In this document: piece after piece, positions 1,565-63,304 of the stretch
How positions within the stretch are numbered: the stretch's first letter is position 1
Layout of the letters: each line of letters opens with the position of its first letter
Origin: Verrucomicrobiota bacterium
GTDB taxonomy: Bacteria; Verrucomicrobiota; Verrucomicrobiia; Limisphaerales; UBA11358
Assembly: GCA_049523555.1 (NCBI GenBank)
Contig: JBEKMU010000013.1
Location: 2,707-66,706, forward strand
Length of the DNA stretch: 64,000 bases
Direction: 5' to 3'
Notes under the pieces: model-generated
Told to the model about the DNA's origin: nothing
What the model saw: only the letters and a program-made list of their open reading frames with translations
The model's database searches: none
Translations under genes and position numbers: made by a program

Positions 1565-2890
1565 TTAAACATCCTGCAATTTGCCGGTCAGGAAGGCCTC
1601 ATAGGCGCTCAAATCGAGCAGGCCGTGGCCGGAAAGGTTGAAGAGAATAACGCGTTTCTTTCCGGCGTCGCGGGCTTTCTTCGCTTCTTCGATGACCGCG
1701 GCAATCGCGTGCGCGGATTCTGGGGCGGGCACAATCCCTTCGCTGCGCGCAAAGAGTGTTCCGGCCTCGAAGACTTTCGTCTGATGATAAGCTTCCGCCT
1801 CGATAAGTCCGAGTTTGAGGGCGTGGCTGACCATCGGCGACATGCCGTGATAACGCAGTCCGCCCGCGTGGATCGGCGGCGGCATGAAATCATGTCCCAG
1901 CGTGTACATCATCAGCAGCGGCGTGGTCATGGCCGTGTCGCCGAAATCGTAGCGCAGTTCACCCTTGGTCATCGAAGGACAGGCGGAAGGTTCGACGGCG
2001 ACAATGCGATACTTCTTTTTCCCGGTGATTTTCTTGTGGATGAACGGAAACGCGATGCCGGCGAAATTGCTCCCGCCGCCGCAGCAGGCGATGATCGAGT
2101 CCGGCTCCTCGCCGGCCATTTCCATCTGTTTGATGGATTCCTGGCCGATGACGGTCTGGTGGAGGCATACGTGATTCAGCACACTGCCGAGCGAGTATTT
2201 CGTGTTCGGATGCTTGGCGGTATCTTCAATGGCTTCGCTGATGGCGATGCCGAGGCTGCCCGGACACTTCGGGTTCTGCGCCCGTACTTTGCGCCCGTAT
2301 TCGGTCTGGTCACTGGGGCTGGGATGCACCGTCGCGCCCCAAGTGTGCATGAGCATCCGGCGATAGGGCTTTTGCTCGTAGCTGACCTTGACCATGTAAA
2401 CGTTGCACTCCAGGCCAAAGAGTTTGCACCCCAGTGCCAAGGCCGAACCCCACTGGCCTGCGCCCGTTTCGGTGGCGAGCCGTTTGGTGCCGGCGACCTT
2501 GTTGTAATAAGCTTGCGCAACGGCGGTGTTGGGCTTGTGGCTGCCGGCGGGGCTGGCGCCTTCGTATTTGTAATAAATGTGCGCCGGTGTCTGGAGCGCC
2601 TTCTCGAAGCGCAACGCACGCAGCAGGGGCGTTGGCCGCCACAGCGCGTAGATGTCGCGGATCTCATCGGGAATCGGAACCCAGCGGTCGGGGCACATTT
2701 CCTGTTTGACGAGGTTCTCTGGAAAAATTGCCAGTAACGCGTCCGGCGGCACGGGCTGTTTGGTGCCCGGATGCAGCGGCGGCGGCAGCGGTTCCGGAAA
2801 GTCAGCCAGCAGATTGTACCATTGCTTGGGAATGTCAGCCTGTGTCAACGCGAAGTGGGTTTGCGTGTTCATAATGGTTGAAGTTGGCAA
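1565..2890 (-). CDS. TrpB-like PLP-dependent enzyme (tryptophan synthase beta chain 2 type)
   Basis: 441 aa. [13 protein letters not shown] at the N-terminus, the [20 protein letters not shown]-lysine motif and a GGGSNFAG glycine loop are characteristic of the TrpB2 clade. Confidence 0.9.
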
Positions 2891-3522
2891 ATAGTTTACC
2901 AGCCGTCAAACCCCTTGTCACGCAAATATTAGCGGACTGCTATAGTGCTAATAATTAAAACAACTGGAAGTTATTCAAATGGCTGGCGCCGGCCCGCCGG
3001 TTTCTGTCGTAGTGATGTCCTCAACGCTTTCGCCGGCAAGCGTTGACGTCATCTCCCGCCCGCACCCGGACGTTTATGCGAAGTGATATGAGCGCGAGGG
3101 CAAATCAGAATGGCGCATTCGAAACGAATGCTAAATCAATTCAGCCACGAAGCCTCAGAATAGGCTGCATTTGTAGTGTCAAACATTATAAAAAGAGTCG
3201 TATCCCAACTGATAGACAAATTTTGCCGGTCTGTCAAAATAAGCGGTATGAAATCGCGATGCCGCCGACATCACCGGTGGTCTTCTGGCACTTCTGACGA
3301 TCAACGTCCCGGCAACCGTGCGTTATGCGAATGTGAGCAGAAACGAGGCATTTCCGGACACAGGATTGTACTAACAACCTATCCGGCCGACGAAGCACCT
3401 CCACTTCGACATGTTTCATCAGGTGGAAACGCTTCAACCATTATCCGCCAAGCTTTTTTCCTAGATACAGATAAGGAAGGCGTACAAAGGAAGTTGTTGA
3501 GGAAAATTTTGGAGTCGAAAGC

Positions 3523-6500
3523 ATGAAACCGAAAATGCTCCTTCTGGTCATGATGGCAAGTGCCGGTACTATTCTCAGGCCACCCTTTGCGACGGCACAG
3601 CAGATTTTACATGGTCATGTGCCGGAGGCTGTGGTGCGCCTGCGGTTGCAGCCGATTGGCCGGCTTGCCGGCACGAATCATCTGTCACTGGCGATCGGAC
3701 TGCCGTTACGGAACCGGGAATCACTCACCAATTTGCTTCAGCAGCTTTATGATCCGGCCAGCACCAATTACCACCACTATCTTACACCGCAACAATTCAC
3801 CGAAGCCTTTGGTCCGACCGAACAGGATTATAAGGCGGTCATCGCTTTTGCAAAAGCGAACAACCTGACAGTGGCGACAACCCATCCCAACCGACTGTTG
3901 CTCGACGTGAGCGGAACGGTGGCGGAAATTGAGCAAGCGCTCAAGGTAACGCTGCGCGTTTACCAGCATCCGACGGAAAAGCGCACTTTTTACGCGCCGG
4001 ACACGGCGCCTTCACTCGCCTTGACCGTTCCGGTCTTGCACATCAGCGGCCTGGATAATTACGCGTTGCCGCATCCCCGGCTCAAGGCCAGCCATATTGC
4101 GAAAAACAACACCGCGTCGCCCAACACCGGTTCGGGACCTGACGGCTGCTATATGGGGAACGATTTCCGGGCCGCTTACGTTCCGGATTCGTCATTGACC
4201 GGTTCGGGACAGGTGGTCGGTTTGTTGCAGTTTGATGGATATACGGCCAGCGACATCATTTACTACGAGAATCTGGCCGGGCTGCCAAATGTTACATTGA
4301 CCAATGTGCTGTTGGACGAATTCGACGGCTACCCGACTGGTTATGGAGATATTGAGGTCTGTCTGGACATTGAAATGGCCATTTCGATGGCACCGGATTT
4401 ATCCCAGGTGATTGTTTATGAAGCGCCGAACGGCAGTCCGTTTGAGGACATCATGAACCGTATGGCCACGGACAACCTGGCCAGGCAGTTGAGTTGTTCA
4501 TGGTATATACCCGACGGTAGGCCCGATGCGACCGCCGACCAGATTTGGCAAGAGATGGCGGCGCAGGGCCAGTCATTTTTCAACGCGTCAGGTGACTACG
4601 GAGCCTATACCGGTTTGATTAGCTTTCCCGGTGACACGCCCTATATCACCCAGGTTGGCGGAACAACTTTGACGACGAGCGGTCCGGGCGGAGTCCGGCT
4701 GTCTGAAACCGTTTGGAACCGGAACAATGGCATCGCCAGCGGCGGCGGAATCAGCACGAGTTATCCAATTCCGGACTGGCAAGCAGGGCTCGACATGACA
4801 GCCTGTCAAGGCTCGGTGACGATGCGCAACACGCCGGATGTGGCGCTGACCGCTGACGATATTTACGTCCGAGCCGATGGTCAGGACTACTCTGTCGGCG
4901 GAACCAGTTGTGCCGCCCCATTGTGGGCGGGATTCATGGCCCTGGTCAACCAGCAGGTCGCCGCCTACGGCAGGCCGCCCGCCGGCTTCATCAACCCGGC
5001 CATCTATGCCCTGGCCAAAGGATCGTTTTATGGCGCCTGCTTTCATGACATCACCACCGGCAATAACACCAACAACAGCAGCCCAAATCTTTACTATGCC
5101 GTTCCCGGCTACGACCTCTGCACGGGTTGGGGCACGCCCAACGGCGCGAACCTCATCAACGCCCTGGCTCCGCCCGACTGGCTGGTTATTACTCCATCCT
5201 ACGGCTTCACTTCCAGCGGCAATCCTGGTGGGCCATTCTCCGTCAATTCACAGAGCTTGAACTTGACCAACGCAGGAACCAACCAGTTTGCCTGGTCTCT
5301 CAGCAATACTTCACCCTGGCTGAATGTCTCGACCAACGGAGGCACACTGACGCCGGGCGGAGCCTCAGCCACGGTGATGGTGAGCCTTAGCCCGGCGGCC
5401 AGCGACCTGCCCCCCGGCGTATACACCGCAACGCTCTGGTTCACCAACCTCGATGATTCAATCGGACAGGGTCGCACCTTTACTTTGATCGTGCTGGGCG
5501 CACCTATGATAGCTGTGCAGCCAAAGAATCAAGTGGCTGTAGCGGGTGGCACTGCAACTTTCACCATCAAAGTAACGGGTGCCACACCCTTGAGTTACAC
5601 CTGGCAGAGGAACGGCAGCTACATCCCTGGCGCGACCAATGCGATTTACACCAACAACAACGCGCAATTGTCCGACTCCGGCAGCCAGTTCTGTTGCATG
5701 GTCACCAACGCCTTTGGCGCCATCACCAGTTCGGTCGCGTCGTTGACAGTCTTCAGTCCTCCCTGGCACTTGTTTAGCGGATTCGATGGCGCCAATCCTG
5801 CCGGCGCTCTGGTGCTGGGCAGTGACGGCAACTTCTATGGCACGACCGAGGGCGGTGGGTTCTACGGCTGTGGAACCATATTCAGAATGACAACGAATGG
5901 GGAGTTGACCACCTTGGTCTCGTTCAACAACGCGAATGGAGTCTTTCCTGCAGCCGGTCTGGTGCAGGGCAGCGACGGCAACTTCTACGGCACCGCGGAA
6001 TACGGCGGAGCCTACAGCTATGGAACCATTTTCAGAATGACTGCCAATGGCGCGCTGACCACCCTGGTTTCGTTCAATGGCACGAATGGTTCAATACCCC
6101 AAGCCGTTCTGGTGCAGGGCAGCGACGGCAATTTTTATGGCACGACGTCTTATGGCGGAGCGGACTTTAACGGATCCGTGCAGAGCGGCAACGGCACCGT
6201 CTTTAGAATAACGCCCAACGGCCTGCTGACCACCCTGGTTCTGTTCGACATGACGAACACTGGCGCCGATCCCTGCGGTGGCCTAGTGCAGGCCGGTGAT
6301 GGGAATTTCTATGGCACAACCCTTTATGGCACAACCCTGAATGGACCAACCTACGGTACCGTATTCAGAATGACAACCAATGGCGTGTTGACAACGTTGG
6401 TTACGTTCAATGCGCCGTATGCGATGGATGGCGGCGCCCCCTATGCCGGCCTGGTGCAGGGCAATGACGGGAATCTCTATGGCACGACCGCGGCAGGCGG

Positions 6501-8574
6501 AGCCTACAACCTTGGAACCGTATTCAGAGTGACCACCAATGGCTTGCTGACCACCCTGGTTTCGTTCAATGGCACGAATGGGATGAAGCCCCAAGCCGCG
6601 CTGGTGCGGGGCAGCGACGGCAATTTCTATGGCGTCACGTCGTTCGGCGGACCCTACGGTGACGGAACTGTGTTCAGCGTGGCAAGCGATGGGACATTGC
6701 ACACGTTCCTCGTGTTCGCGGGCATCAATGGCTTCTGGCCCACAGCCGCGCTGGTGCAAGGCAGTGATGGCAATTTCTATGGCACGACTTTTTATGGCGG
6801 CGACGGCTACGACCCCCTGTTGGACTTTAGTGGCAATGGCATCGTCTTCCGCCTGGTGCCGCCTCCAAGCCCAAGCCCGCCGCTAATTGTCGTGCAACCT
6901 CTGAATCAGACCGCGGTGGTCGGCGACACCGCGTCCTTCTCCATCATCGCCATCGGCAGCGCAGCTTTGAGTTATTCCTGGATGCACCAAGGTGCCTTGG
7001 TTCCCGGTGCAACGAGCGCCACTTGCACGCTGACGAACGTTTCCGCGGCGGACGCGGGCAGTTACTACGCTGTCGTGACCAATGACTACGGCAGTGTCAC
7101 CAGCCGCGTAGCCACCTTAACCATAACCGCGTTGGTGGCGGCTGAACTCGGAGTTTACGGCCAGCAACTGGTGGTATTTTTTCCGACCACTACCAGAACC
7201 AATTATACGCTGCAAATCACCACCAATCCAGCTTCCGGCAATTGGGTGACGGTCACCAACGGCATTCCCTTGAGCGGCTTGGAAATTGACAGCGTCCCCG
7301 GCCCAGCCTTTTTCCGGTTTAGCCGCGGTAGGCCAAGCGTAACATGTCTTGCTGCCGGCTATTCCCACAGCCTGTTTGTGAAACACGACGGCAGTCTGTG
7401 GGCCATGGGCAACAACAGTTGCGGCCAGTTGGGCAACGGTACTTACAACAGCACCAACCTCCCCGAGGAAATTGTGGCCGACAACGTCATGGCAATGGCC
7501 GGCGGTTGGACACATAGTCTATTTGTGGAACGCGACGGCAGTTTGTGGGGTATGGGCTGCAACACTTTTGGCCAGTTGGGCAACGGCGCTTTCAGCACCG
7601 ACACCCCCGAGGAGATTGTGACCACCAACGTCACAGCCATTGCCGCCGGCGGTTTGCATACCCTGTTTATCAAGGGCGATGGCAGCCTGTGGGCCATGGG
7701 TTGGAACCAGTCTGGCCAGTTGGGTGACGGAACTTACATTAACACCAACCGTCCCGAACAAATTGTGACCAGTGATGTTATGGCCATCGCCGGCGGATAT
7801 TGTCACAGTCTTTTCCTGAAGAGTGACGGCAGCCTGTGGGCCATGGGCAACAACAGTTGCGGCCAGTTGGGTGACGGAATTTACATTAACACCAACCACC
7901 CCGAACAGATCGTGGCCAGCAATGTTATGGCCATTGCCTGCGGATATAGCCACAGCCTTTTCTTGAAGAGTGACGGCAGCCTGTGGGCCATGGGCGATAA
8001 TTCTTACGGCGAATTGGGCGACGGCTCTTACAACCGGACGAACCGGCCCGAGCAGATCGTTGCCAGCAATGTCACAGCCATTGCTGCCGGAAATGGTTTC
8101 AGTTTGTTTTCCGAGCGCGACGGCAGCCTGTGGGCCATGGGTTGGAACCAGTCTGGCCAGTTGGGTAACGGAACTTACATCAACACCAACCGCCCCGAAC
8201 AGATCATGGCCAGCAATGTTATGGCCATTGCCTGCGGATATAGCCACAGCCTTTTCCTGAAGAGTGACGGCAGCCTGTGGGCCATGGGCGATAATTCTTA
8301 CGGCGAATTGGGCGACGGCTCTTACGCCACCAACTTCCCCTACGGAATCAACCACCCCGAGGAGGTTGTGGGCATTAGTGTACCCGTGCTGGGTATTGGT
8401 ACCTGGAGCAATCAGCCGGTGGTTTTTTACCCGGTCGCCACCGCCACCAATGATTTGCTGCTGATTACGACCAATCTCACATCCGGCAATTGGGCGCCAT
8501 TCAGCACCGGCATTCCCTTCAGCATCCTGCAAATCCCCAACGTCCCCAGCCCCTTCTTTTTCCGGCTGTATTAA
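3523..8574 (+). CDS. Secreted multidomain protein: pro-kumamolisin/sedolisin (S53) peptidase + BACON/Ig-like domains + 7x Gloeo_Verruco repeats + Ig-like + 7x RCC1 repeats
   Basis: Signal peptide MKPKMLLLVMMASAG...ATAQQ. An S53 pro-domain and catalytic domain with the serine motif VGGTSCAAPLWAG (about nt 4890-4930). Two Ig I-set-like modules (PxIxVQPxNQxAVxGxTAxF...YxxVVTNxxGSVTS). Seven xGSDGNFYGTT...GTIFRMTxNGxLTTLVSFN units. Seven HSLFxKSDGSLWAMGxNxxGQLGDG units. Confidence 0.9.
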   Translation: MKPKMLLLVMMASAGTILRPPFATAQQILHGHVPEAVVRLRLQPIGRLAGTNHLSLAIGLPLRNRESLTNLLQQLYDPASTNYHHYLTPQQFTEAFGPTEQDYKAVIAFAKANNLTVATTHPNRLLLDVSGTVAEIEQALKVTLRVYQHPTEKRTFYAPDTAPSLALTVPVLHISGLDNYALPHPRLKASHIAKNNTASPNTGSGPDGCYMGNDFRAAYVPDSSLTGSGQVVGLLQFDGYTASDIIYYENLAGLPNVTLTNVLLDEFDGYPTGYGDIEVCLDIEMAISMAPDLSQVIVYEAPNGSPFEDIMNRMATDNLARQLSCSWYIPDGRPDATADQIWQEMAAQGQSFFNASGDYGAYTGLISFPGDTPYITQVGGTTLTTSGPGGVRLSETVWNRNNGIASGGGISTSYPIPDWQAGLDMTACQGSVTMRNTPDVALTADDIYVRADGQDYSVGGTSCAAPLWAGFMALVNQQVAAYGRPPAGFINPAIYALAKGSFYGACFHDITTGNNTNNSSPNLYYAVPGYDLCTGWGTPNGANLINALAPPDWLVITPSYGFTSSGNPGGPFSVNSQSLNLTNAGTNQFAWSLSNTSPWLNVSTNGGTLTPGGASATVMVSLSPAASDLPPGVYTATLWFTNLDDSIGQGRTFTLIVLGAPMIAVQPKNQVAVAGGTATFTIKVTGATPLSYTWQRNGSYIPGATNAIYTNNNAQLSDSGSQFCCMVTNAFGAITSSVASLTVFSPPWHLFSGFDGANPAGALVLGSDGNFYGTTEGGGFYGCGTIFRMTTNGELTTLVSFNNANGVFPAAGLVQGSDGNFYGTAEYGGAYSYGTIFRMTANGALTTLVSFNGTNGSIPQAVLVQGSDGNFYGTTSYGGADFNGSVQSGNGTVFRITPNGLLTTLVLFDMTNTGADPCGGLVQAGDGNFYGTTLYGTTLNGPTYGTVFRMTTNGVLTTLVTFNAPYAMDGGAPYAGLVQGNDGNLYGTTAAGGAYNLGTVFRVTTNGLLTTLVSFNGTNGMKPQAALVRGSDGNFYGVTSFGGPYGDGTVFSVASDGTLHTFLVFAGINGFWPTAALVQGSDGNFYGTTFYGGDGYDPLLDFSGNGIVFRLVPPPSPSPPLIVVQPLNQTAVVGDTASFSIIAIGSAALSYSWMHQGALVPGATSATCTLTNVSAADAGSYYAVVTNDYGSVTSRVATLTITALVAAELGVYGQQLVVFFPTTTRTNYTLQITTNPASGNWVTVTNGIPLSGLEIDSVPGPAFFRFSRGRPSVTCLAAGYSHSLFVKHDGSLWAMGNNSCGQLGNGTYNSTNLPEEIVADNVMAMAGGWTHSLFVERDGSLWGMGCNTFGQLGNGAFSTDTPEEIVTTNVTAIAAGGLHTLFIKGDGSLWAMGWNQSGQLGDGTYINTNRPEQIVTSDVMAIAGGYCHSLFLKSDGSLWAMGNNSCGQLGDGIYINTNHPEQIVASNVMAIACGYSHSLFLKSDGSLWAMGDNSYGELGDGSYNRTNRPEQIVASNVTAIAAGNGFSLFSERDGSLWAMGWNQSGQLGNGTYINTNRPEQIMASNVMAIACGYSHSLFLKSDGSLWAMGDNSYGELGDGSYATNFPYGINHPEEVVGISVPVLGIGTWSNQPVVFYPVATATNDLLLITTNLTSGNWAPFSTGIPFSILQIPNVPSPFFFRLY
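5773..6862 (+). repeat. Seven tandem Gloeo_Verruco (GloVer, choice-of-anchor type) repeats inside the giant CDS
   Basis: I counted seven occurrences of G(S/N/G)DGN(F/L)YG, each followed by G(T/I)(I/V)F(R/S). The period is about 50 aa. Confidence 0.8.
7345..8370 (+). repeat. Seven tandem RCC1-type propeller blades inside the giant CDS
   Basis: Seven DGSLW(A/G)MG...GQLG(D/N)G units with a period of about 49 aa. Some pairs are nearly identical at the DNA level. Confidence 0.85.
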
Positions 8575-11227: not shown

Positions 11228-12787
11228 ATGAAACCCCAGGTCGAAATCTATGACACGACCCTGCGCGACGGTTCGCAGGGTGAAGGCATCAATTTCTCGG
11301 TCGCGGACAAGCTCCGCATCGCCGAGAAGCTCGACGCGTTCGGGGTGCATTACATCGAAGGCGGCTGGCCCGGCTCGAACCCCAAGGACATGGAATTTTT
11401 TGCGCAGGCCAGCCGGCACAAGTGGAAGAACGCCCAAATCGCCGCGTTCAGCATGACCCGCCGCAAGGGCGTCACCGTCGAGAAGGACGAGTTGATGCGG
11501 CAGATTCTCGATGCGAAAACACCGGTCGTCACCGTCGTCGGCAAAACGTGGCTGTTGCACGTCACCGAGGTGTTGCGCGCCAAGCCGGATGAAAACCTCG
11601 CGATGATCGGCGACACCATCCGCTTTTTGAAGGACCACGGCAAAACGGTCATCTACGACGCCGAGCACAGCTTCGACGGTTTCAAGGACGAACCGGAATA
11701 CGCGCTGGCCACATGGCAGGCCGCGGAGAAAGCGGGCGCGGAGTGCATCGCGTTGTGCGACACGAATGGCGGCTGTCTGCCGGAGGAAATCGCGCGCATC
11801 ACGGCGTTTGCGAAAAGCAAACTCACGGCCCGCCTCGGCATCCACACACACAACGATTGCGGTGTGGGTGTGGCCAATGCCCTCGCCGGCCTCGAAGCCG
11901 GTGCCACGCAGGTGCAGGGCACCATCAACGGCTACGGCGAACGCACGGGCAATTGCAATCTGACCAGCGTCATTCCGCTGATTCATTTCAAGTTGAAAAA
12001 AATCGGCGTGCCAGTGAAGTCATTACCCAAGCTCAAGGAGCTTTCCGAATTCGTGGATGAGATGGCCAACGTTCGGCACGATCCGCGCCAGCCGTGGGTG
12101 GGACAGACGGCTTTTGCGCACAAGGGCGGGATGCACGTGCACGCGATTGACCGCGTGGCGCGCAGCTACGAACACATTGACCCGGCCGCCGTTGGGAATT
12201 TCCGCCGCGTGCTCATCAGCGACATGTCGGGCCGCACGAACATTTTGATGAAGGGCGCGGAGCTCGGGTTCAAGCTCAAGCCGGAAATGCCGGAAGTGAA
12301 AACTATCACGCAGCGCGTCAAGGAACTGGAAAACCAAGGTTACGAGTTCGAGGCCGCCGAAGGTTCGCTCGCGCTGCTGATCAGCAAGACGCTCAAACAT
12401 CGCGACCCGCTGTTTCACGTGGACGCCTATCACGTTTCCATGCGGCGTGATGCCAGGGAGTCCGTCTGTGAAGCGACGGTCAAGGTCGGCGTCGGCACCC
12501 GGCAGGCGCAGACGGTGGCCGAGGGCGACGGCCCCGTGAACGCGCTCGACGGCGCATTGCGCTCGGCGCTGGTGAAGTTTTATCCGCAGCTTAAAAAGGT
12601 GACGCTCACGGATTACAAGGTGCGCATTCTTAACAGCGACACCGGCACCGCCGCCAAGACGCGCGTGCTCATCGAATCCAGCGACGGCCGGCGCGAATGG
12701 GGCACCGTCGGCGTGAGCGAGAACATCATCGAAGCCAGCCTCCAGGCGCTCGTGGACAGCATGGAATATGCGCTGTTAAAAAAATGA
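11228..12787 (+). CDS. cimA: Citramalate synthase / LeuA-related (isoleucine pathway)
   Basis: MKPQVEIYDTTLRDGSQGEGINFSVADKLRIAEKLDAFGVHYIEGGWPGSNPKDMEFF matches the citramalate synthase subfamily pattern. The ATG at 11228 lies inside ORF 11141..12787. Confidence 0.85.
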   Translation: MKPQVEIYDTTLRDGSQGEGINFSVADKLRIAEKLDAFGVHYIEGGWPGSNPKDMEFFAQASRHKWKNAQIAAFSMTRRKGVTVEKDELMRQILDAKTPVVTVVGKTWLLHVTEVLRAKPDENLAMIGDTIRFLKDHGKTVIYDAEHSFDGFKDEPEYALATWQAAEKAGAECIALCDTNGGCLPEEIARITAFAKSKLTARLGIHTHNDCGVGVANALAGLEAGATQVQGTINGYGERTGNCNLTSVIPLIHFKLKKIGVPVKSLPKLKELSEFVDEMANVRHDPRQPWVGQTAFAHKGGMHVHAIDRVARSYEHIDPAAVGNFRRVLISDMSGRTNILMKGAELGFKLKPEMPEVKTITQRVKELENQGYEFEAAEGSLALLISKTLKHRDPLFHVDAYHVSMRRDARESVCEATVKVGVGTRQAQTVAEGDGPVNALDGALRSALVKFYPQLKKVTLTDYKVRILNSDTGTAAKTRVLIESSDGRREWGTVGVSENIIEASLQALVDSMEYALLKK

Positions 12788-12792
12788 TTTTT

Positions 12793-12861
12793 CAACGCAA
12801 AGGCGCAAAGAAGCAAAGTCGCCAGGAGAAGAAAAATCTTTGCGTCTCTGCGTCTTGGCGT
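12793..12861. repeat. Imperfect inverted-repeat (hairpin) element in the cimA-valS gap
   Basis: CAACGCAAAGGCGCAAAGAAGCAAAG ... CTTTGCGTCTCTGCGTCTTGGCGT. The arms are reverse-complementary with a few mismatches. Confidence 0.7.
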
Positions 12862-12870
12862 CAAATTCCC

Positions 12871-15800
12871 ATGAGTGAAATTCCCAAGGCCTACGAACCG
12901 CAAGCAGTCGAAGACAAGTGGTACCAGTTCTGGCTCGACCAGAAGTGCTTCGTCGCCGATGCGCAGTCGAAGAAGCCTGCTTATTCCATTGTCATCCCGC
13001 CGCCGAATGTCACCGGCATGCTCACGATGGGCCACGTCCTCAACAACACCATCCAGGACATCCTCGCCCGCAAAGCGCGCATGGACGGCAAGGAGGTCCT
13101 CTGGCTGCCCGGCACCGATCACGCCGGCATTGCCACGCAGACGGTGGTGGAACGCACGTTAAAAAAGGCCGGTGAAATCAAACATCGTGACGATTTGGGC
13201 CGCGAAAAATTCCTCGAACGCGTCTGGCAATGGAAGGAAAAGCACGGCGGTATCATCATCCAGCAATTGAAGAAGCTCGGCGCGTCGTGCGACTGGACGC
13301 GTGAACGGTTCACCATGGACCCGGAATATTCGCGCTGTGTCCAGAAGGTATTTGTGGAGCTTTACAAAAAGGGCCTTATCTATCGCGGCAAGCGCATGGT
13401 GAACTGGGACCCTGCCGCCCGCACCGCGCTCTCCGACGAGGAAGTCGAAATGATCGAGGAAAAGGGGCACCTCTGGCACATCAAATATCCGCTGCTCGAC
13501 GACCAGGGCCAACCCAAGGCTGATGAATTCGTGGTCGTCGCCACGACCCGCCCGGAAACGATGCTCGGCGACGAAGCGGTGGCAGTGAATCCGTCCGACC
13601 CGCGTTACACGAAGCTGGTCGGGCGGAAGGTGCTGTTGCCGCTCCAGAACAAGCCCATCCCGGTCATTGCTGACGCACTGGTGGACCCGAAGTTCGGTAC
13701 CGGTTGCGTGAAGGTGACGCCCGCACACGATCCGGCCGACTACGAGATAGCGCTACGGCACAACCTGCCGATCACCGTCGTCATCGGCCTCGACGGCCAC
13801 ATGACGCCGGCCGCCGGCAAGGAGTTTGAGGGCTTGAACCGTTCGAAAGTGCGCCAGGCCGCAGTCGAGAAACTGACCGAGCAGGGCTTGTTGCTGAAGA
13901 CCGAGGATTACGTCCACAATGTCGGTTACAGCCAGCGCAGCCATGTGCCCATCGAACCGTATCTGAGCGAGCAATGGTTTTTGAAATATCCAAGCGTGGA
14001 AAAATCGCGGGCGTGCGTGGAGCAAGCCGACGTCGGAGGGGCGAGTTCCACGAGCCCCACTTCAAGTCAGGGCGTCGCAGAGCTCCGCCCTCCGAAAGAT
14101 GGGAAAATGCAGTTCCATCCGCAGCGCTGGGCGAAGGTCTATGACCACTGGATGGGCAACATCCAGGACTGGTGCATCAGCCGCCAGCTTTGGTGGGGAC
14201 ACCGGATTCCGGTGTGGACTCTGGCGTGGAATGACGAATGTGCCGGCGGTGCAATTGAAGAGGAAGAATTTTTGATGGGTATCAATGCATGGGTGAAGGA
14301 AGTCGGTTTAGTTGGCAAACTTGAAATTCACATCGCCCGTGATTTGCCCTATACAGCTCGCATTTTGACATTGGACTCGGAAGCGGATGCTCGTCTGGCA
14401 GAACTGGCTGAAGTCGCAAGCAAACATGATGAACAAGCTTCGTCTGAGTATGAAGCGCGCTTTACGACAGAAGCGAAGATTCTTTACACGATTGATACAC
14501 TCACCCAAGACCCCGATGTGCTCGATACGTGGTTCAGCTCCTGGCTCTGGCCGTTTGCGACGATGGGCTGGACGGGTGACAAATCCCAGGACTCCAACAA
14601 CCCAACACTCCGGGCCTTTTATCCGACCACCGACCTGGTCACCGGGCCGGACATCATTTTCTTCTGGGTCGCGCGCATGATTATGGCGGGCTACGAATTC
14701 ATGGGGGATTTGCCGTTCCGGAACGTCTATTTCACCGGCATCATCCGCGACAAGCAGGGCCGCAAGATGTCCAAGAGCCTCGGCAATTCGCCTGACCCGC
14801 TCGACCTCATCGCCAAGTTCGGCGCCGATGCGCTCCGGTTCGGCACCATGCGCAGCGCGCCGCTTGGTCAGGACATTTTGTTCGACGAACAAAACGTCGA
14901 GTTGGGCCGCAATTTCTGCAACAAGCTCTGGAACGCCTGCCGCTTCCGCCAGATGGTCGGCAGTGCCGACTTCCCAATTCAGGGGGAGATTAATCCAAAA
15001 CTATTAACGTCAGACGACAAATGGATTTTGCTCAAGCTCGATCAGGCGATTCGTGAAATGAACACCGCATTCGCCGAATACAAATTCAGCGACGCGACGG
15101 CGACGCTCTACCGCTTTTTCTGGAGCGAGTATTGCGATTGGTACGTCGAGGCGAGCAAAGCTGTGCTGTCGCACAGCGTTGAACCGTTAAAACGCGAAAC
15201 CGTTGAATCGGCCACCGGTTCAACGATTCAACCTTTCAACGATTCAACGGCTCGCAAAGCGAATACTCTGGCCGTGATTGATTTTGTTCTCTCGCATACG
15301 CTGCGGCTGTTTCATCCGTTTCTGCCGTTCATCACGGAGGAACTCTGGCATGGGATGGGTTATGCCGAGGACATGCCACAAGATCAGGGCGGCAAAACCA
15401 TCATGTTCGCGCCCTGGCCGAAGCCGCTCGGCGACGATTTCAAATCACACTACGACCTGACCGAACAGGACGAAAAACACATCGAAGCCCGCAACGAATT
15501 TGTCACGCAAGGCCGCAATCTGCGCCGCACGGCGAACATCGCCGCGAACAAGAAGGTCAAATTCATTCTCAAACCGGCGCGCGAATTGCCGGCTCACGAC
15601 CTCGAAGTGCTAAGGCTGTTGCTGAATGCCGAGGCGGTCGAGGTGAACACGAATTTTCAGCCGGCAAAAAACACGATGACGGTGCGCACCGCGTTGGGCG
15701 ATTTGTTTCTGCCGCTGGAAGGTTTGATTGACATCGAGGCGGAAAAAGCGCGGCTGAAAAAGGAGTTGGAAAAAATCGAGGCCGAGACCGCCAAAGTCGA

Positions 15801-15933
15801 ACAGAAGCTGGCCAACCCGAACTTCACGCAAAAGGTTCCAGCGCAAGTCTTGGAGGAACACAAGCAGCGTCTCGCCGAGTGGCATGGCAAACGCGACCAC
15901 GTGAAATCCGCACTGGCCGCCCTGCAAGGTTGA
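12871..15933 (+). CDS. valS: Valine--tRNA ligase
   Basis: MSEIPKAYEPQAVEDKWYQFW start, the class I HIGH-type motif PPPNVTGMLTMGHV and KMSKS (RKMSKSLGN). A C-terminal coiled coil is present. The ATG at 12871 lies inside ORF 12697..15933. Confidence 0.95.
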   Translation: MSEIPKAYEPQAVEDKWYQFWLDQKCFVADAQSKKPAYSIVIPPPNVTGMLTMGHVLNNTIQDILARKARMDGKEVLWLPGTDHAGIATQTVVERTLKKAGEIKHRDDLGREKFLERVWQWKEKHGGIIIQQLKKLGASCDWTRERFTMDPEYSRCVQKVFVELYKKGLIYRGKRMVNWDPAARTALSDEEVEMIEEKGHLWHIKYPLLDDQGQPKADEFVVVATTRPETMLGDEAVAVNPSDPRYTKLVGRKVLLPLQNKPIPVIADALVDPKFGTGCVKVTPAHDPADYEIALRHNLPITVVIGLDGHMTPAAGKEFEGLNRSKVRQAAVEKLTEQGLLLKTEDYVHNVGYSQRSHVPIEPYLSEQWFLKYPSVEKSRACVEQADVGGASSTSPTSSQGVAELRPPKDGKMQFHPQRWAKVYDHWMGNIQDWCISRQLWWGHRIPVWTLAWNDECAGGAIEEEEFLMGINAWVKEVGLVGKLEIHIARDLPYTARILTLDSEADARLAELAEVASKHDEQASSEYEARFTTEAKILYTIDTLTQDPDVLDTWFSSWLWPFATMGWTGDKSQDSNNPTLRAFYPTTDLVTGPDIIFFWVARMIMAGYEFMGDLPFRNVYFTGIIRDKQGRKMSKSLGNSPDPLDLIAKFGADALRFGTMRSAPLGQDILFDEQNVELGRNFCNKLWNACRFRQMVGSADFPIQGEINPKLLTSDDKWILLKLDQAIREMNTAFAEYKFSDATATLYRFFWSEYCDWYVEASKAVLSHSVEPLKRETVESATGSTIQPFNDSTARKANTLAVIDFVLSHTLRLFHPFLPFITEELWHGMGYAEDMPQDQGGKTIMFAPWPKPLGDDFKSHYDLTEQDEKHIEARNEFVTQGRNLRRTANIAANKKVKFILKPARELPAHDLEVLRLLLNAEAVEVNTNFQPAKNTMTVRTALGDLFLPLEGLIDIEAEKARLKKELEKIEAETAKVEQKLANPNFTQKVPAQVLEEHKQRLAEWHGKRDHVKSALAALQG

Positions 15934-17887: not shown

Positions 17888-18736
17888 ATGAAAGCCCTAT
17901 TATTGAATAAATCACTGGCCGTGGCCGTCAAAGCCGCGCGCGCCGCGGGGAAACTCATGCGCGACAACTGGCACGCGCCCAAGCGCGTCAACGCCACCGA
18001 TGCCCACGACATCAAGCTTGAACTCGATGTGCGCAGCCAGAAACTCATCGAAAAAAACCTGTGTGCCGCGTTTCCAAAAATTCCTTTGCTCGGCGAGGAA
18101 GGTTGCACGGGCGACATGAACGCCGAATATCGCTGGGTGGTGGACCCGATTGACGGCACGGTGAATTATTTCCTTGGCATTCCGCACGCTGCCGTATCTA
18201 TCGCTTTGCAGCGGTGGGGCGAGAGTCTCTCGAGCCCCGACTCAAAAACAAAAAAATCAGGGCTCGACAGAGTCTCGCCCCACCAAAATTTTGAAACAAT
18301 CCTCGGAGTAATCTATGGTCCGTTCACGGATGAACTCTGGACGGTGATTCGCGGCGGGCCGACGCGATTGAATGGGTGCGTCGTCCGTGTCAGCCGCCGC
18401 CAAAACCTGAAGGAGGCCGTCGTGGCCATGGGCTTTTCCAAGAGCAAACAAAACCTGGCAAAAAGCCTGCCGCACCTGAACCGGCTTTCCCGGCGCACGT
18501 TGAAAATGCGCATCATGGGTTCGGCAGCGCTCGAACTTGCCTACGTCGCCTCCGGCCGCCTCGACGCCTACATCGAGCGCACCATCAATTTGTGGGACAT
18601 CGCGGCGGGCGCATTGATGGTTGAATGTTCCGGCGGCGAATTTTACACCCGGCCCGCGCCGGGCGGGAAACTCCGGATGATCGCCAGCAACGGCCTGCTC
18701 CGCCGGAAACTTCAGCTTGGAAACTTGCTGAAGTGA
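17888..18736 (+). CDS. Inositol monophosphatase family protein (SuhB-like), with a repeat-derived internal insert
   Basis: Motifs LLGEEG and WVVDPIDGTVNYFLGIPHAAVSIAL, and a C-terminal WDIAAGALMV. Confidence 0.85.
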   Translation: MKALLLNKSLAVAVKAARAAGKLMRDNWHAPKRVNATDAHDIKLELDVRSQKLIEKNLCAAFPKIPLLGEEGCTGDMNAEYRWVVDPIDGTVNYFLGIPHAAVSIALQRWGESLSSPDSKTKKSGLDRVSPHQNFETILGVIYGPFTDELWTVIRGGPTRLNGCVVRVSRRQNLKEAVVAMGFSKSKQNLAKSLPHLNRLSRRTLKMRIMGSAALELAYVASGRLDAYIERTINLWDIAAGALMVECSGGEFYTRPAPGGKLRMIASNGLLRRKLQLGNLLK

Positions 18737-18766
18737 ATTCAGGTCGGGACGCGCGGTAGCGCAGCC

Positions 18767-19579
18767 CTACCGCAATTTGTTCGCGATGAAAAATGCCTTC
18801 AATTTTTCCAACGCCCGGGCGCGATGGCTCAATTTGTTTTTCACGTCTTCGCCCAGTTCGGCAAACGTCTGCTCGAAACCAACCGGCACAAACAGCGGGT
18901 CGTAACCAAAACCGTTTTGGCCGCGTGATTCAAAATTCATGCGGCCTTTGCAAACCCCATCGAACAATTCCGTTTGCATCTCGAATTCATCCGCGTAGCA
19001 AACCGGCGACGCATTTTCGATTTTTTCAGGCAGCACCGGCGTCAACGCCAACACGCAATGAAACCGTGCGGTGCGCTTCTCCAACGGAACGTTCTTGAGC
19101 AGGCGCAACAATTTGGCGTTGTTGTCGGCGTCGGACGTGTTGCCGGACTTCGCCGAATCCAGCGCGGCAAAGCGCGCCGAATGCACGCCCGGTGCGCCGT
19201 TCAACGCGTCCACCTCCAAACCGGAATCGTCGGCGAGCACGAATAACTTTGAACCCTGAACTGTGAACCCTGAACCCTGAACATTGGAAAGCCAGCGCGC
19301 CAGTTCAACGGCTTTTTTTGTCGCGTTGCCGGCGAACGTGCCGGCGTCCTCGACGATTTTCGGCGCGCCGGGAAAATCGTTGAGCGTGAGAAACTGAAAC
19401 CGGCCGCCGAGGATGGCGCGGATTTCGCCTGCTTTGTGGGCGTTGCGCGTGGCGATGAGCAGCGTAATCACGTCCGCACAATAACAGGCGGGAAATTGGA
19501 TTGGCAGCCGCAAACTTTGGCCGGCCTGAACATTTTTTGGCAATTCTTTATCCGAAATGGTCAAAACGGGCCTGTCCAC
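18767..19579 (-). CDS. rdgB: Non-canonical purine NTP pyrophosphatase (RdgB/HAM1 family)
   Basis: LLIATRNAHKAGEIRAILG, LADDSGLEVDALNGAPGVHSARF and GFGYDPLF. The start is ambiguous: GTG at 19579 (longest ORF) or GTG at 19470 just before VITLLIATRN. Confidence 0.85.
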   Translation of the reverse strand: MDRPVLTISDKELPKNVQAGQSLRLPIQFPACYCADVITLLIATRNAHKAGEIRAILGGRFQFLTLNDFPGAPKIVEDAGTFAGNATKKAVELARWLSNVQGSGFTVQGSKLFVLADDSGLEVDALNGAPGVHSARFAALDSAKSGNTSDADNNAKLLRLLKNVPLEKRTARFHCVLALTPVLPEKIENASPVCYADEFEMQTELFDGVCKGRMNFESRGQNGFGYDPLFVPVGFEQTFAELGEDVKNKLSHRARALEKLKAFFIANKLR

Positions 19580-33296: not shown

Positions 33297-34229
33297 ATGT
33301 CCTCAACCCTGAAATCATTGCGGGCTTTGTCCGACCCGACGCGGCTGCGCATCGTGGCGCTGCTGGAGCGGGATGAATTGTCCGTGCACGAGCTGCAGGA
33401 AATCACGCGGCTCGGCCAGTCACGCATTTCCACGCATCTCGGCCTGCTGCAGGATTCGGAACTGGTACAATCGCGGCGCGACGGCAAACGGACGTTCTAC
33501 AAGCTGAACCCGGCTGCGGATGGCGCCGCGCGCGAATTCATCCAACTGGCCATTCGCGGCGCGAAGGAACTGCCCGAGCACGCAGGCGACCAGATCAATC
33601 TCAAGCGCATCCTCGGCCGCCGGCGCGAACAAGCACAGGTCTATTTCAATCAGGTTGCCGGCCGGTTCGACCGCGTTTATGGTCCCGGCCGTTCGTGGCA
33701 GGCCTTTGGGCATCTGCTGTTGCGGATTTTGCCGCCGCTGGTCGTGGCCGACCTCGGCGCGGGCGAAGGCCTGTTGAGCGAACTGCTCGCGCGCCGCTGC
33801 AAAAAAGTCATCGCCGTGGACAACTCGGAAAAGATCGTCGCCTTCGGCGCGGCGAAGGCAAAAAAGAACGGGTTGAAAAATCTGGAGTTCCGCCTCGGCG
33901 ATTTGCAGAACCCACCCATTGAAGCCGGCAGCGTTGACCTGGTGATTTTGAGCCAAGCATTGCATCACGCCGAAGCCCCGTCCGCGGCAATTGCCGCCGC
34001 AGCCAAAATCCTTCGCCCGCACGGGCAAATCATCATCCTCGATTTGCTCAAGCACAATTTTGAGAAGGCGCACGGGCTTTACGGCGACCGTTGGCCGGGC
34101 TTTGCCGAGAGCGATTTGCAGCGCTGGCTGGAGGAGGCGGGTTTCAGGAAGATCGAAATCAGTGTCGTCGCCCGCGAGGAATCGCCGCCGCATTTTCAGA
34201 CCATTCTGGCGGGCGGGGAAAAAACGTAG
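33297..34229 (+). CDS. ArsR-family wHTH fused to a class I SAM-dependent methyltransferase-like domain (SahR-like regulator)
   Basis: LSDPTRLRIVALLERDELSVHELQEITRLGQSRISTHLGLLQDSELV (ArsR HTH). VVADLGAGEGLLSELLARRCKKVIAVDNS (SAM-binding motif I). The ATG at 33297 lies inside the TTG-started ORF 33270. Confidence 0.8.
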   Translation: MSSTLKSLRALSDPTRLRIVALLERDELSVHELQEITRLGQSRISTHLGLLQDSELVQSRRDGKRTFYKLNPAADGAAREFIQLAIRGAKELPEHAGDQINLKRILGRRREQAQVYFNQVAGRFDRVYGPGRSWQAFGHLLLRILPPLVVADLGAGEGLLSELLARRCKKVIAVDNSEKIVAFGAAKAKKNGLKNLEFRLGDLQNPPIEAGSVDLVILSQALHHAEAPSAAIAAAAKILRPHGQIIILDLLKHNFEKAHGLYGDRWPGFAESDLQRWLEEAGFRKIEISVVAREESPPHFQTILAGGEKT

Positions 34230-34292
34230 GACAGGCGTCGCGCCTGTCTCCATTTTCTCCTAACGTTGAGACAGGCTGGAAGCCTGTCCTAC
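34226..34292. repeat. 67-bp REPIN-like inverted doublet (GTAGGACAGGC...GCCTGTCCTAC)
   Basis: Arms GTAGGACAGGCGTCGCGCCTGTCTC and GAGACAGGCTGGAAGCCTGTCCTAC with a 17-nt spacer. It exactly fills the convergent gap between the regulator gene and leuS. The regulator's TAG stop lies inside the terminal GTAG. Confidence 0.85.
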
Positions 34293-34295
34293 ACT

Positions 34296-37136
34296 TTACG
34301 CCACGGCGATGTTCACCAGTTTTTTCGGCACGACGATGACTTTCCTGATCGTCTTGCCGGCCAGGAACGGCTTCACTTTTTCAGAGGCGCGAGCAGCGGC
34401 TTCGAGCGCGGCATTGTCAGCGTTGGCCGGGACTTTGATGACGTCGCGCAACTTGCCGTTCACCTGCACGGGAATTTCCAGTGTGTCCTCGACGAGCAAC
34501 GTTGCATCAAACTTTGGCCAGCAGGCGTAAGCCAGCGCGATTCGATGTTGGATGTTCGATGTTGGATGTTCGATGTTCAGCTTTTCCCACAACTCCTCCG
34601 CCAAGTGCGGCGCGAAAGGCTGGAGTAGAATCAAAAAATCGCGCAGCACCACAACCGGCTTTGTTTCCCAGGTGATGGCGTCGTTTACAAAGACCATCAG
34701 CGCCGAAATAGCCGTGTTGAAACGAAAGCCGTCCAAATCCGCCGTCACCTTTTTGATGCAGGCGTGCAACGTTTTAAGCTGCTCGCGCGCCGGTTCGACA
34801 TCTTTAATCGAGCCGCTGAGTTGGATTTTTTTGAGCAGTTCTGGGCCTTTCTGCGGCTGAATTGTTTCCGCCTGCTCGAATTCCGTTTCAGATTTTTCGT
34901 CCACGAACAGCCGCCAGACGCGGCCGAGGAAACGATAAACGCCTTCGACGCCCTTGGTGCTCCACGGCTTGACCATTTCAAGCGGGCCCATGAACATTTC
35001 GTAAAGACGCAACGCATCCGTGCCGAAATCTCTCAAAACATCATCGGGGTTCACCACGTTGCCGCGCGATTTGGACATTTTCTGGCCGTCCTCGCCGAGA
35101 ATCAGTCCTTGATTGACGAGCTTGAAGAACGGTTCGGGCGTCGAGACGTAGCCGAGGTCGAACAAGACCTTGTGCCAGAACCGTGCGTAAAGCAGATGTA
35201 ATACGGCGTGCTCGGTACCGCCGACATATAAATCCACGCCTGGAGTCGTGGACTTGGAGTCTGGGGTCTGGGATTTCGGTTCTTGGGAACCCATCCAATA
35301 TTGCTCCGCCTCCTTGCCGACGAACGATTGCGCATTCTTCGCGTCGAGGTAACGCAAATAATACCAGCAACTGCCGGCCCATTGCGGCATGGTGTTCGTC
35401 TCGCGCTGTGAGCCGTCGGGCAGATTCACCCAATCCTTCGCGCGCGCGAGCGGCGGCTGGCCATCAGGAGTGGGTTTGTAATCGTCAAGCGGCGGCGGCA
35501 AGACCGGCAGCGCGCTTTCGGGCAGGGCTTCGTGATACAAATTTCCAGCGGCATCCTTTTTCCAAATAATCGGGAAAGGCTCGCCCCAGTAACGTTGCCG
35601 GCTGAACAGCCAGTCGCGGAGTTTGTAATTGATGGTTTTCTTTCCAAGGCCTCTCGATTCGAGCCAAGCGGTGATTTTCTTTTTGGCTTCGGGCGTGGGC
35701 AGGCCGGTGATGGAAATCTCCGGCCCAGTGGAATTCACCGAAGTGCCGTCGTCCACGAATCCGCGCCAATCTGTCTTCTGGTCGGGTGGCTGAACGACTT
35801 GAATAATGGGCAGGTTGAATTTGGTGGCGAACTCGAAGTCGCGCGTGTCATGTGCCGGCACGGCCATGATGGCACCGGTCCCATAGCTGGCGAGAACGTA
35901 ATCAGCAATCCAAATGGGAATTTTTTCTCCGTTGACCGGGTTGATGACGTAAGCACCGGTGAAGACGCCAGTTTTCTCTTTGGCCAACTCGGTGCGTTCG
36001 AGGTCGGACTTCTTGGCAACGTCGGTTTTATACTTGGCAATCGCGGCGCGCAGTTCCGCAGTGGTAACTTGGTCAACGAGTTTGTGTTCCGGCGCGAGCA
36101 CCATGTAAGTTGCGCCGAAGAGCGTATCGGGTCGCGTAGTAAAAACTTCGATGAAGTTTGCAACGTCTGAAAACTGAACATTTGAAACTTGAAATCTCAC
36201 TGTGGCACCTTCGCTGCGACCAATCCAGTTCCGTTGCATTTCCTTGAGCGAATTGCTCCAGTCAATCGTGTCGAGGTCGGTGAGAAGTTTCTCGGCATAG
36301 GCGGTGATGCGGAGCATCCATTGGCGCATCGGTTTGCGGGTGACGGGAAATCCGCCGACTTCACTCTTGCCGTCCACAACTTCTTCGTTGGCCAGCACGG
36401 TGCCAAGTTGCTCGCACCACCAGACGGGTTGTTCGCTGACGTAGGCGAGGCGTTTTGAGTCGCGGTAGGCGCGGCGGCGGGCTTCGAGGTCTTGTTCGTC
36501 AGTAGGGCCGACCTGCCGGTCGGCCTGGACGCGCGGCAGCGCGTCCCTACCGGAAAGTTCCGCCGGATACTTCAGCGTCTCAATCGGCTCGGCCTTGTTC
36601 GTTTCCGGATTGAACCACGAGTTGTAAAGCTTCAGGAAAATCCACTGGGTCCACTTGAAATAATCGGGGTCGGTGGTGGCGAGTTCGCGCGACCAATCGT
36701 AACTGAAGCCAAGCGATTGAATCTGGCGCTTGAACGTGGCGATGTTGGCCTCGGTGGTCTGGCGGGGGTGCAGGCCGGTCTTGACGGCATATTGCTCGGC
36801 GGGCAGGCCGAAGGCGTCCCAGCCCATCGGATGCAGGACGTTGAAGCCGAGCGCGCGCCGGTAACGGGCGAGGATGTCCGTGGCGGTGTAACCTTCCGGA
36901 TGCCCAACGTGCAAACCCGCGCCGCTAGGATACGGAAACATGTCGAGGATGTAAAATTTGGGTGGCAACTGCGTGGCGGCCACCTTGCCGGAAAGACGAT
37001 GGCGTTTGGCGAAAGGGTGCCCGTCCGGGAGGACTTCGCCCGGATTAAACGCGCGAAAGGTCTGCTGTTCGTTCCAAAATTGCTGCCACTTAGGTTCAAT
37101 CAAATGAAACGGATATTGCCTGCGGCTGCTCGACAT
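34296..37136 (-). CDS. leuS: Leucine--tRNA ligase
   Basis: [23 protein letters not shown] (HIGH region), KMSKSRGN, and the CP1 editing domain. It is 946 aa, longer than usual because of several inserts. Confidence 0.97.
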
Positions 37137-47847: not shown

Positions 47848-47897
47848 GTAGGGCCGCGCTGCTGCGCGGCCTCGGACGACCAGCAGGTCGTCCCTAC
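47848..47897. repeat. 50-bp GTAG...CTAC double-hairpin REP-like element
   Basis: GTAG-GGCCGCGCTGCTGCGCGGCC-TC-GGACGACCAGCAGGTCGTCC-CTAC. Its architecture matches the element inside leuS at 36502..36550. Confidence 0.85.
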
Positions 47898-48734: not shown

Positions 48735-48807
48735 GTAGGGCGGGCAGTCCTCTGCCCGCCGCTCATCCTCACAACGATTGCGGCGCGCACGGAGTGACGC
48801 GCCCCAC
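48735..48807. repeat. Inverted doublet of REP-like hairpins between convergent genes
   Basis: GTAGGGCGGGCAGTCCTCTGCCCGCC is on the plus strand. GTGGGGCGCGTCACTCCGTGCGCGCC is on the minus strand. Confidence 0.75.
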
Positions 48808-57669: not shown

Positions 57670-57768
57670 TGATTGAATCGTTGAATCGTTGAACGGTTGA
57701 ACGGTTGAATCGGCGAAATTCGATGTCGCCGCGCCGGTTCAACGATTCGACGCTTTTAACGATTAAAC
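57670..57768. repeat. GTTGAATCG/GTTGAACGG-type inverted-repeat element in the nuoK-nuoJ spacer
   Basis: TTGAATCGTTGAATCGTTGAACGGTTGAACGGTTGAATCGGCG ... CGCCGGTTCAACGATTCGACGCTTTTAACGATTAAACG. Confidence 0.8.
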
Positions 57769-63110: not shown

Positions 63111-63251
63111 CGCGTGATGCGTAATGCGTGATGCGTGAAAAAGTCGGGCAGGCGTCTCGCCTGCTCGCGCCGAGCGAAGCAAGGCAGGGAGATAGAAATG
63201 CCAAATGCTCGCGCTGATGCGCTCGCCGGGCAGGCGAGACGCCTGCCCTAC
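63111..63251. repeat. GTGATGCGT tandem plus 109-bp REPIN-like inverted doublet in the nuoF-nuoE spacer
   Basis: CGCGTGATGCGTAATGCGTGATGCGTGA. Then GTCGGGCAGGCGTCTCGCCTGC (63143..63164) and GGGCAGGCGAGACGCCTGCCCTAC (63228..63251). The arms are near-perfect reverse complements. Confidence 0.85.
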
Positions 63252-63304
63252 GTTGCCGGCTTGACTGGCCGATGAAACCCTTTAGCCTAGCCAACGCTCC
63301 GGCT

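Follow-up and report, generated by a model that had tools for sequence, protein, structure and literature searches.

The window analysed here (the whole stretch of DNA, 64 kb in length) carries, within a gene of the IMPase/SuhB family, an inverted repeat that is very probably a RAYT-associated REP doublet (REPIN type) whose in-frame translation gives the host protein a disordered loop.

Repeat finding placed the inverted repeat at 18213-18284, with a length of 72 nt and 28-nt arms that are 89% complementary (3 mismatches). A sequence-only reading of the same DNA had described a 70-bp inverted doublet at 18214-18283, with 24-nt arms that are reverse complements with 2 mismatches around an A-rich spacer. 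This doublet is real: its arms are the core of the 28-nt arms, and its spacer measures 16 nt. When the 28-mer arm was searched with up to 3 mismatches, we found exactly two sites in the window and none in 100 dinucleotide shuffles. As RNA, the segment 18205-18292 folds at -49.3 kcal/mol, against -20.8 +/- 3.1 kcal/mol for its shuffles (z = -9.2), and 0 out of 200 shuffles folded as stably. According to these two controls (0/100 arm matches and 0/200 folds), a chance palindrome is ruled out. By itself, the 11-mer GTGGGGCGAGA occurs in the window no less often than expected by chance (2 matches against 1.5), so the significance resides in the long arms and their pairing. We found no Rfam match for the element, and at the gathering score the sole match in the window was a tRNA at 63305-63375. 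The terminator scan reported no intrinsic terminator on the sense strand at the element. On the minus strand, the segment 18287-18263 runs through the right REP unit and then into the T-run of the spacer, a simple intrinsic-terminator pattern at the level of a consensus match only. Neither a target-site duplication nor a defined target motif was visible: the element is flanked by GCAGC and AAAATT, without a direct repeat. We saw no intermediate of transposition either.

The element lies in-frame in the ORF 17888-18736 (+), where it accounts for 24 codons. It is flanked by ...GIPHAAVSIALQ and ...ILGVIYGP, and the encoded peptide is RWGESLSSPDSKTKKSGLDRVSPHQ. Stop codons are absent from the arms in all six frames. 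The coordinates of the element, of its host gene and of the other cassettes discussed below are collected in Table 1.

Table 1. Location of the IMPase element, its parts and host gene, other cassettes in the window, and class B loci
Feature	Position	Strand	Description
Whole element	18213..18284	+	Probable REP doublet with REPIN-type hairpin; same architecture as the 56 short-spacer dispersed doublets aligned, among the matches listed
Left REP unit GGTGGGGCGAGAGTCTCTCGAGCCCCGA	18213..18240	+	GTGG tag at 18214-18217; encodes (R)WGESLSSP(D)
A-rich spacer CTCAAAAACAAAAAAA	18241..18256	+	16 nt; hairpin loop; encodes SKTKK
Right REP unit	18257..18284	-	Minus strand GGTGGGGCGAGACTCTGTCGAGCCCTGA, plus strand TCAGGGCTCGACAGAGTCTCGCCCCACC; plus strand encodes SGLDRVSPH
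Host gene, IMPase/SuhB family	17888..18736	+	282 aa; EE 70-71, DPIDGT 86-91 and WDIAAG 236-241 intact
ValS cassette 1	14029-14103 in ORF 12697-15933	+	aa 445-469; -37 kcal/mol; in-frame
ValS cassette 2	15181-15253 in ORF 12697-15933	+	73-nt hairpin; aa 829-853; -20.7 kcal/mol; in-frame
LeuS cassette	36500-36552 in ORF 34296-37136	-	GGTAGGG-hairpin-hairpin-CCCTACC; in-frame; -38.7 kcal/mol on the sense strand
NuoG-like cassette	60612-60682 in ORF 59916-61664	-	GTAGGACAGGC...GCCTGTCCTAC doublet; in-frame; aa 328-351
GTAG/GTCG-tagged hairpins	18741-18772; 22263; 47848-47897; 48735-48807; 63140-63254		GGTAGGG...CCCTACC clamp; mostly intergenic
Class B loci	L001 10329-10416, L002, L125, L126, L128, L131, L133		
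Class B loci, continued	L134, L165, L176, L206, L207		

The host gene is a member of the IMPase/SuhB family by several measures. Its product matches Pfam PF00459 at E = 1.4e-46, including the metal-binding motifs EE, DPxDGT and WDxxAG, and retrieves SuhB/IMPase entries of the PDB at E about 1e-34. It is collinear with the E. coli SuhB structures 6tqn and 2qfl, with query residues 112-136 lacking a counterpart. The catalytic motif residues are invariant in 59 orthologs, and the order K+/H+ exchanger, IMPase, Ham1 is kept at orthologous loci. Among orthologs with the same kind of insert (class A, described below), identity at codon positions 1 and 2 is 0.80-0.87, compared with 0.50-0.66 at position 3, so the host gene is under purifying selection.

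The location given by the sequence-only reading, between the conserved GIPHAAVSIAL and ILGVIYGP strands, holds, and so does its claim that about 24 residues are added to a normally tight hairpin. In distant family members the position of the insert is a turn of two residues, and deleting exactly 18213-18284 in silico gives a 258-aa protein reading ...SIALQQNFETILGVIYGP..., with a turn of canonical length. We also modelled the window protein with AlphaFold2 (pLDDT 83, pTM 0.84). Residues 112-132 have a pLDDT below 50 and lie between the strands 100-111 and 134-144, and we thus read the insert as an unstructured excursion. In the model the 24 residues form a low-confidence loop, and they are predicted to be a disordered surface loop at the tip of a beta-hairpin.

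The arm of the element belongs to a dispersed family. In the census we scanned one genome per GTDB species with GTGGGGCGAGANTCNNTCGAGCCC, working with 8-kb blocks and arms at up to 5 substitutions. The arm GTGGGGCGAGAC-TCC-GTCGAGCCC was found in at least 119 blocks from about 35 assemblies, nearly all of them labelled Verrucomicrobiota. Among the matches listed, the named assemblies are Limisphaerales or Pedosphaera-like, and CAYHFE01, QHPW01 and JAXMHQ01 contribute about 16-20 blocks each. The arms, at least 222 in number, comprise 74 inverted pairs with the tags pointing out, against 4 pairs in any other orientation, and 66 singlets among the matches listed. The spacing of the 24-nt cores is mostly 23-26 nt, with a second mode at 89-145 nt (among the matches listed); in the window element it is 22 nt. 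The listed matches also yielded 56 short doublets that align as GGTGGGGCGAGACTCCGTCGAGCCCTGA - spacer - TCAGGGCTCGACGGAGTCTCGCCCCACC, many with an outer layer of CATGAACC / GGTTCATG. Their unit is GT-GGGGC-GA-GAC-TCC-GTC-GA-GCCCC, and the 5' GTGG is present in essentially all of the 56. Compared with the family consensus GTGGGGCGAGACTCCGTCGAGCCC, the left unit of the window element differs at 3 of 24 positions and the right unit has 1 mismatch. The left-arm variant of the window copy recurs in the genomic copy L080 and in the orthologs L205 and L209.

These features are those of REP sequences: a short (20-40 nt) imperfect palindrome with a 5' tetranucleotide of the GTAG type, here GTGG, and many dispersed copies per genome in the census assemblies, with one copy in the 64 kb of the window. 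The excess of inverted doublets, their preferred spacing and the single hairpin that they form correspond to REPINs. The hairpins of the IMPase copies fold at -34 to -53 kcal/mol, and the longer AsnB and helicase copies at -65 to -105 kcal/mol. In one respect the window copy departs from the definition, as it lies inside a gene and not in extragenic DNA. Most of the dispersed copies, among the matches listed, have no credible gene spanning them or are located 5' of the first domain. The IMPase gene was absent from all 119 census blocks listed, so the census copies represent independent sites. Outside the IMPase gene, the arm family was found neither in the 64-kb window nor in the roughly 40 kb around three other class A loci.

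The family is associated with a RAYT homolog. In L091, the ORF 7116-7841 (-) matched the NCBIfam model NF047646 'REP-associated tyrosine transposase' with E = 1.7e-17 and 63.7 bits, a score that falls short of the curated cutoff (80 bits). It also matched E. coli TnpA_REP (4ER8) with E = 7e-7 and with the HUH and Y-x-x-NPV motifs aligned. Arms are located immediately upstream and downstream of this gene. L087 contains a RAYT ortholog with 57% identity and a doublet directly upstream. A RAYT flanked by its own REPs, at a score below the threshold, was therefore found in two genomes, neither of them the source of the window. Pfam missed both homologs, that of L091 at E <= 0.001 (Y1_Tnp) and that of L087 at E <= 0.01, and a strict HUH + Y regular expression gave no RAYT. 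A looser pattern, together with tblastn searches using consensus strings, led to L091 and to a stop-containing fragment in L019. The RAYT candidates confirmed by curated models or real sequences are L091 and L087 only. With these results, the census of the arm places the element in a dispersed, RAYT-associated REP family, and we infer that a RAYT moved it.

A second RAYT-like gene, with a weak Y1_Tnp match and HUH and Y-x-x-NPV motifs, was observed in L209 (16081-16773, -) at a distance of 7 kb from an IMPase gene of class A. The repeats on either side of it form another set (GCAGACATTCCTGTCTGC, GGGACATTCCTGTCCC and GTAGAGCAGGCATTCCTGCCTG), so these genomes hold several REP-RAYT systems.

One could argue that the palindrome originated in place, when template switching or an inverted duplication occurred in the gene, and that it is neither mobile nor dispersed. 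It is the sole copy in the 64-kb window, and quasi-palindrome correction could keep its arms matched. Such an origin is nevertheless extremely improbable: more than 100 unrelated sites, in about 35 assemblies, have nearly identical arms arranged in the same kind of doublet, and these arms flank RAYT genes. The census contradicts it for class A; for the heptad hairpin of class B, described below, a local origin is possible.

Besides the IMPase gene, other genes carry the repeat. According to their Pfam flanks, in-gene census copies are found in AsnB, DEAD helicase, ValS, glycosyltransferase, aminotransferase, UvrD-like and Cas4-Cas1 genes. The copies lie between or inside Pfam domains in ValS, a multi-glycosyltransferase, a class III aminotransferase, a UvrD-like helicase and a Cas4-Cas1 fusion. 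Between them, the copies are read in all three frames: the IMPase copy reads WGESLSSP...LDRVSPH, the asparagine synthase copy of L101 reads GGARHRRA...GSTESRPT, and the DEAD-box helicase copy of L088 reads VGRDSVEP...GSTESRPA. In L120 (2899-2991, ORF 1753-4215 -), the linker of the Cas4-Cas1 fusion holds two units of the census family, each a single REP. We discarded L039, L113, L036, L093, L006 and L109 as in-gene cases, with the repeat upstream of the first domain, and L020, L016, L047, L119 and L055, in which the repeat is in a long ORF without a Pfam family.

The window itself contains further hairpin doublets of the GTAG type and four more in-frame cassettes, distributed among three other conserved genes (Table 1). 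The minus strand of the first ValS cassette shows a GTGG-GGC... head, similar in style to the IMPase repeat, and in L013 the GTGGGGCGAGAC family itself occupies an approximately equivalent position of ValS. The second, in the anticodon-binding domain, has arms made of short tandem units resembling TTCAACGA/TTGAATCG; at this site the L001 ortholog has nothing, and L004, L209 and L210 have different cassettes. The LeuS cassette corresponds to aa 195-213, between the catalytic-domain match and the editing domain. The NuoG-like cassette folds at -36 to -43 kcal/mol depending on the strand (z = -9.5 on the plus strand of the window). It separates the Fe-S domains from the molybdopterin domain, and a sister copy lies between convergent genes at 34221-34297. 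The GTAG/GTCG-tagged hairpins elsewhere in the window, one of which begins five bases past the IMPase stop codon, point to several REP families in the source genome. Other intergenic hairpins (L001 5146-5227 and 8155-8267, window 57676-57755) have arms composed of CATCGAA, CACGAAA or TTGAATCG tandem repeats. Each of them is different in sequence, they recur between genes in these genomes, and they matched no known family.

The orthologs of the host gene show a variety of cassettes at the same codon site. All of the 120 closest proteins (72-100% identity, from Verrucomicrobiota metagenomes and MAGs) have an insert there, and the inserts fall into distinct classes. Class A is the REP doublet; it comprises 42 sequences by motif-based class assignment, among which the peptide WGES(L/P)SSP...LDGVSPH is well conserved. 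In class B, which includes the IMPase orthologs given in Table 1, four or five heptads (GTGACNN) are followed by a stretch of about 25 nt and by the inverse heptads, with folds of -40 to -59 kcal/mol. The GTGAC core hardly varies, and at three stem positions the sixth base of the heptad covaries between A-U and G-C. The class B stem is long and has a bulge every seventh base. Its arms have no further copy in the 20-kb flanks, and just one heptad array was present in the 119 census blocks listed. Class B may be a second repeat family, an array bound by protein or a locally generated structure. In class C and the short forms, the heptads stand in tandem tracts without a fold. Class D, judged from peptides only, seems to join another left half (peptide RVEGRESRVE) to the right half of class B.

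As evidence against its proposal, the sequence-only reading had named an insert shared by palindrome-less orthologs. At the site such orthologs do carry extra sequence, in the form of other cassettes that cannot be aligned with this one; an insert shared in the intended sense was not found. The site is empty and of canonical form (e.g. QHRGQSVV) in relatives at 59-68% identity, and more distant lineages carry yet other inserts. In L158 (about 53% identity), a 47-residue insert in the same loop (GGCTCCTCCCTCTCCTCC...GGAGGAGAGGG) folds at -55 to -61 kcal/mol; it would be another independent acquisition of a hairpin at the IMPase site.

After masking the insert, the nearest neighbour belonged to another class in 39 of the 120 sequences. 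Pairs of proteins that are 96-98% identical carry A versus B, B versus C, or D versus B. The DNA of these pairs is merely 87-89% identical, which weakens their description as near-identical hosts with different inserts. In such pairs the homology stops at ...TTGCAG and restarts at ACCGT, and the cassette alone differs. The total lengths of classes A and B are nearly equal, and in one close pair both genes measure 855 nt. Since the protein NJ tree was short and unsupported, we used pairwise identities instead of topology. Insert class and gene tree are discordant, so a single old insertion, vertically inherited, is not the whole story. We also considered that classes A and B could be one DNA in another frame or inverted, and rejected it: the frames give WGES.., VGRE.. 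and GGAR.., never DECRVT.., and the two DNAs are unalignable.

The arms of class A are also more similar than the rest of the gene would predict. In five class A orthologs they are 80-100% identical, with a nearly invariant right-arm core (CTCGACGGAGTCTCGCCCCACC), against 50-66% at the third codon positions of the remaining gene, which are near saturation. The spacer between the 25-nt arm cores of class A is 22 or 28 nt long, A-rich and variable. The conservation of the arms is thus far above that of synonymous sites, and more than simple neutral decay of an old insertion would predict.

The conserved class A peptide (42 orthologs) could indicate a functional loop, selected at the amino-acid level as, for example, a new interaction surface, with the palindrome being incidental. 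We regard this as very unlikely, given that hosts with 96-98% identity carry entirely different peptides at the site, that the loop is predicted to be disordered and that other genes read the DNA in the other two frames. Besides, the third codon positions of the arms are conserved too, so conservation acts on the nucleotides and not on the residues alone.

Conservation at the nucleotide level would also be expected if a co-opted REP hairpin were kept for a nucleic-acid role in the IMPase gene, as a long double-stranded stem of the mRNA serving as an RNase III or stability site, a ribosome pause site or a DNA/antisense-transcription signal, with the peptide as a by-product. Several observations speak for such a role: two unrelated long hairpins (classes A and B) of nearly equal length at the same codon site, class A arms conserved well beyond third positions, the A-U to G-C covariation in the class B stem, and the terminator-like pattern formed by the right arm and the spacer T-run on the minus strand. 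In E. coli, suhB interacts genetically with RNase III, which we counted in the same direction. We nonetheless consider this explanation unlikely. Very similar genes carry class C, class D and short forms without hairpins (-15 to 0 kcal/mol), the relatives at 59-68% identity have no insert, and the dispersed family is mostly outside genes. Moreover, ValS has alternative cassettes at one permissive site, and LeuS and the NuoG-like gene carry in-frame cassettes as well, which suggests a general property of these genomes and makes IMPase-specific regulation less likely.

The class turnover and the arm conservation may reflect recombination between old alleles, repeated insertion at a permissive site that is selected for, or a nucleic-acid function. 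A stronger proposal, which we put forward as speculative and rather improbable, is that the hairpin tip is a recurrent exchange point, where unrelated structured cassettes swap faster than the gene diverges and the arms are held at the nucleotide level. If true, it would imply an active, site-directed exchange of cassettes, RAYT-linked or recombinational, or a selected nucleic-acid function in a SuhB-like gene. Given the parallel in ValS, it could also mean a general and undescribed turnover of in-gene repeats in Verrucomicrobiota.

Returning to the REP doublet, the following course of events would explain most of these observations. Two GTGG-tagged imperfect palindromes of about 25 nt, inverted, with their tags outward and a short spacer, would constitute a mobile unit. 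Its family, dispersed in Verrucomicrobiota, is associated with a RAYT, a Y1 HUH enzyme acting on single-stranded hairpin DNA. One copy would have landed at the beta-hairpin tip of the IMPase/SuhB-family gene. It could have survived there because 72 nt make 24 codons, the arms are free of stops in every frame and a surface turn tolerates extra residues. The element would now be transcribed and translated as a disordered 24-residue loop, with the enzyme core still under purifying selection. The host protein is probably still active, and the insert would be roughly neutral for it.

These results would extend the REPIN/RAYT picture, drawn mainly from Pseudomonas and Enterobacteria, to soil and freshwater Verrucomicrobiota, and the IMPase copy would offer a clean natural case of a selfish hairpin translated within a conserved enzyme. 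They also matter for annotation, as the repeats yield recurring peptides (WGETPSSP, VGRDSVEP, GSTESRPT and LDGVSPH) and inflate loop lengths in conserved families. The ortholog series, with empty sites, REP doublets, heptad hairpins and decayed or non-hairpin tracts, provides material on the persistence of REPINs, their maintenance versus their replacement. The main remaining interest lies in how unrelated cassettes come to replace one another at a single codon position and in the nucleotide-level conservation of the arms.

Among the known systems, DDE-derived MITEs (Correia/NEMIS, ERIC) are, like this family, short, non-autonomous, hairpin-forming and dispersed, and are occasionally found in ORFs. 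Unlike them, the IMPase copy has no visible target-site duplication (...GCAGC / AAAATT), its ends are GTGG-tagged REP units and not IS-like terminal inverted repeats, and the associated enzyme is of the Y1 HUH type.

The Rickettsia palindromic elements (RPE), reportedly described by Ogata et al. in 2000, are said to lie in-frame in conserved protein genes and to be translated. What is shared with them is an in-frame palindrome that becomes a surface segment tolerated by the fold, and hosts among aminoacyl-tRNA synthetases and DNA-repair genes. They differ in phylum, their sequence is probably unrelated and RPE-1 is longer (about 100-150 bp); we treat RPE as a functional analogue only. RPE are also mentioned in the context of REPs, where RPE-4 and RPE-6 form a CGTC-tagged class without a dedicated transposase (PMC3733652). 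The window family, in contrast, is GTAG/GTGG-tagged and RAYT-associated.

The closest relatives are REPINs, defined as REP doublets forming hairpins (Bertels & Rainey 2011, PMC3116915), and the dimers of GTAG-tagged REPs, which TnpA_REP binds and cleaves only if the 5' tag is present (PMC3479197; PDB 4ER8). The window family has in common with them an imperfect palindrome of about 25 nt, a 5' GT(A/G)G tag, many dispersed copies, inverted doublets that form one long hairpin at a preferred spacing, and a Y1 HUH homolog flanked by the repeats. REPINs are mostly extragenic by definition, whereas the window copy is intragenic and translated; and the RAYT homolog found here, the putative mobiliser, scores below the curated NCBIfam cutoff. 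A tag that reads GTGG is on record for the verrucomicrobium Opitutus terrae (Di Nocera et al. 2013, PMC3733652). A minority of the REPs in such families is known to lie within genes. Intragenic GTAG REPs are most numerous in O. terrae, where dimers or groups encoding 20-30 residues make up more than half of them; helicases and, in other species, tRNA synthetases are among the hosts (PMC3733652). In the supplementary list of that work, neither the arm sequence of the window element nor its host gene appears: the string GTGGGG is absent, and so are entries for inositol or suhB. The pattern in the window fits the O. terrae record of intragenic REPs (PMC3733652). REP dimers that lie within genes and encode 20-30 residues have thus been known since 2013, and the IMPase copy belongs to that kind.
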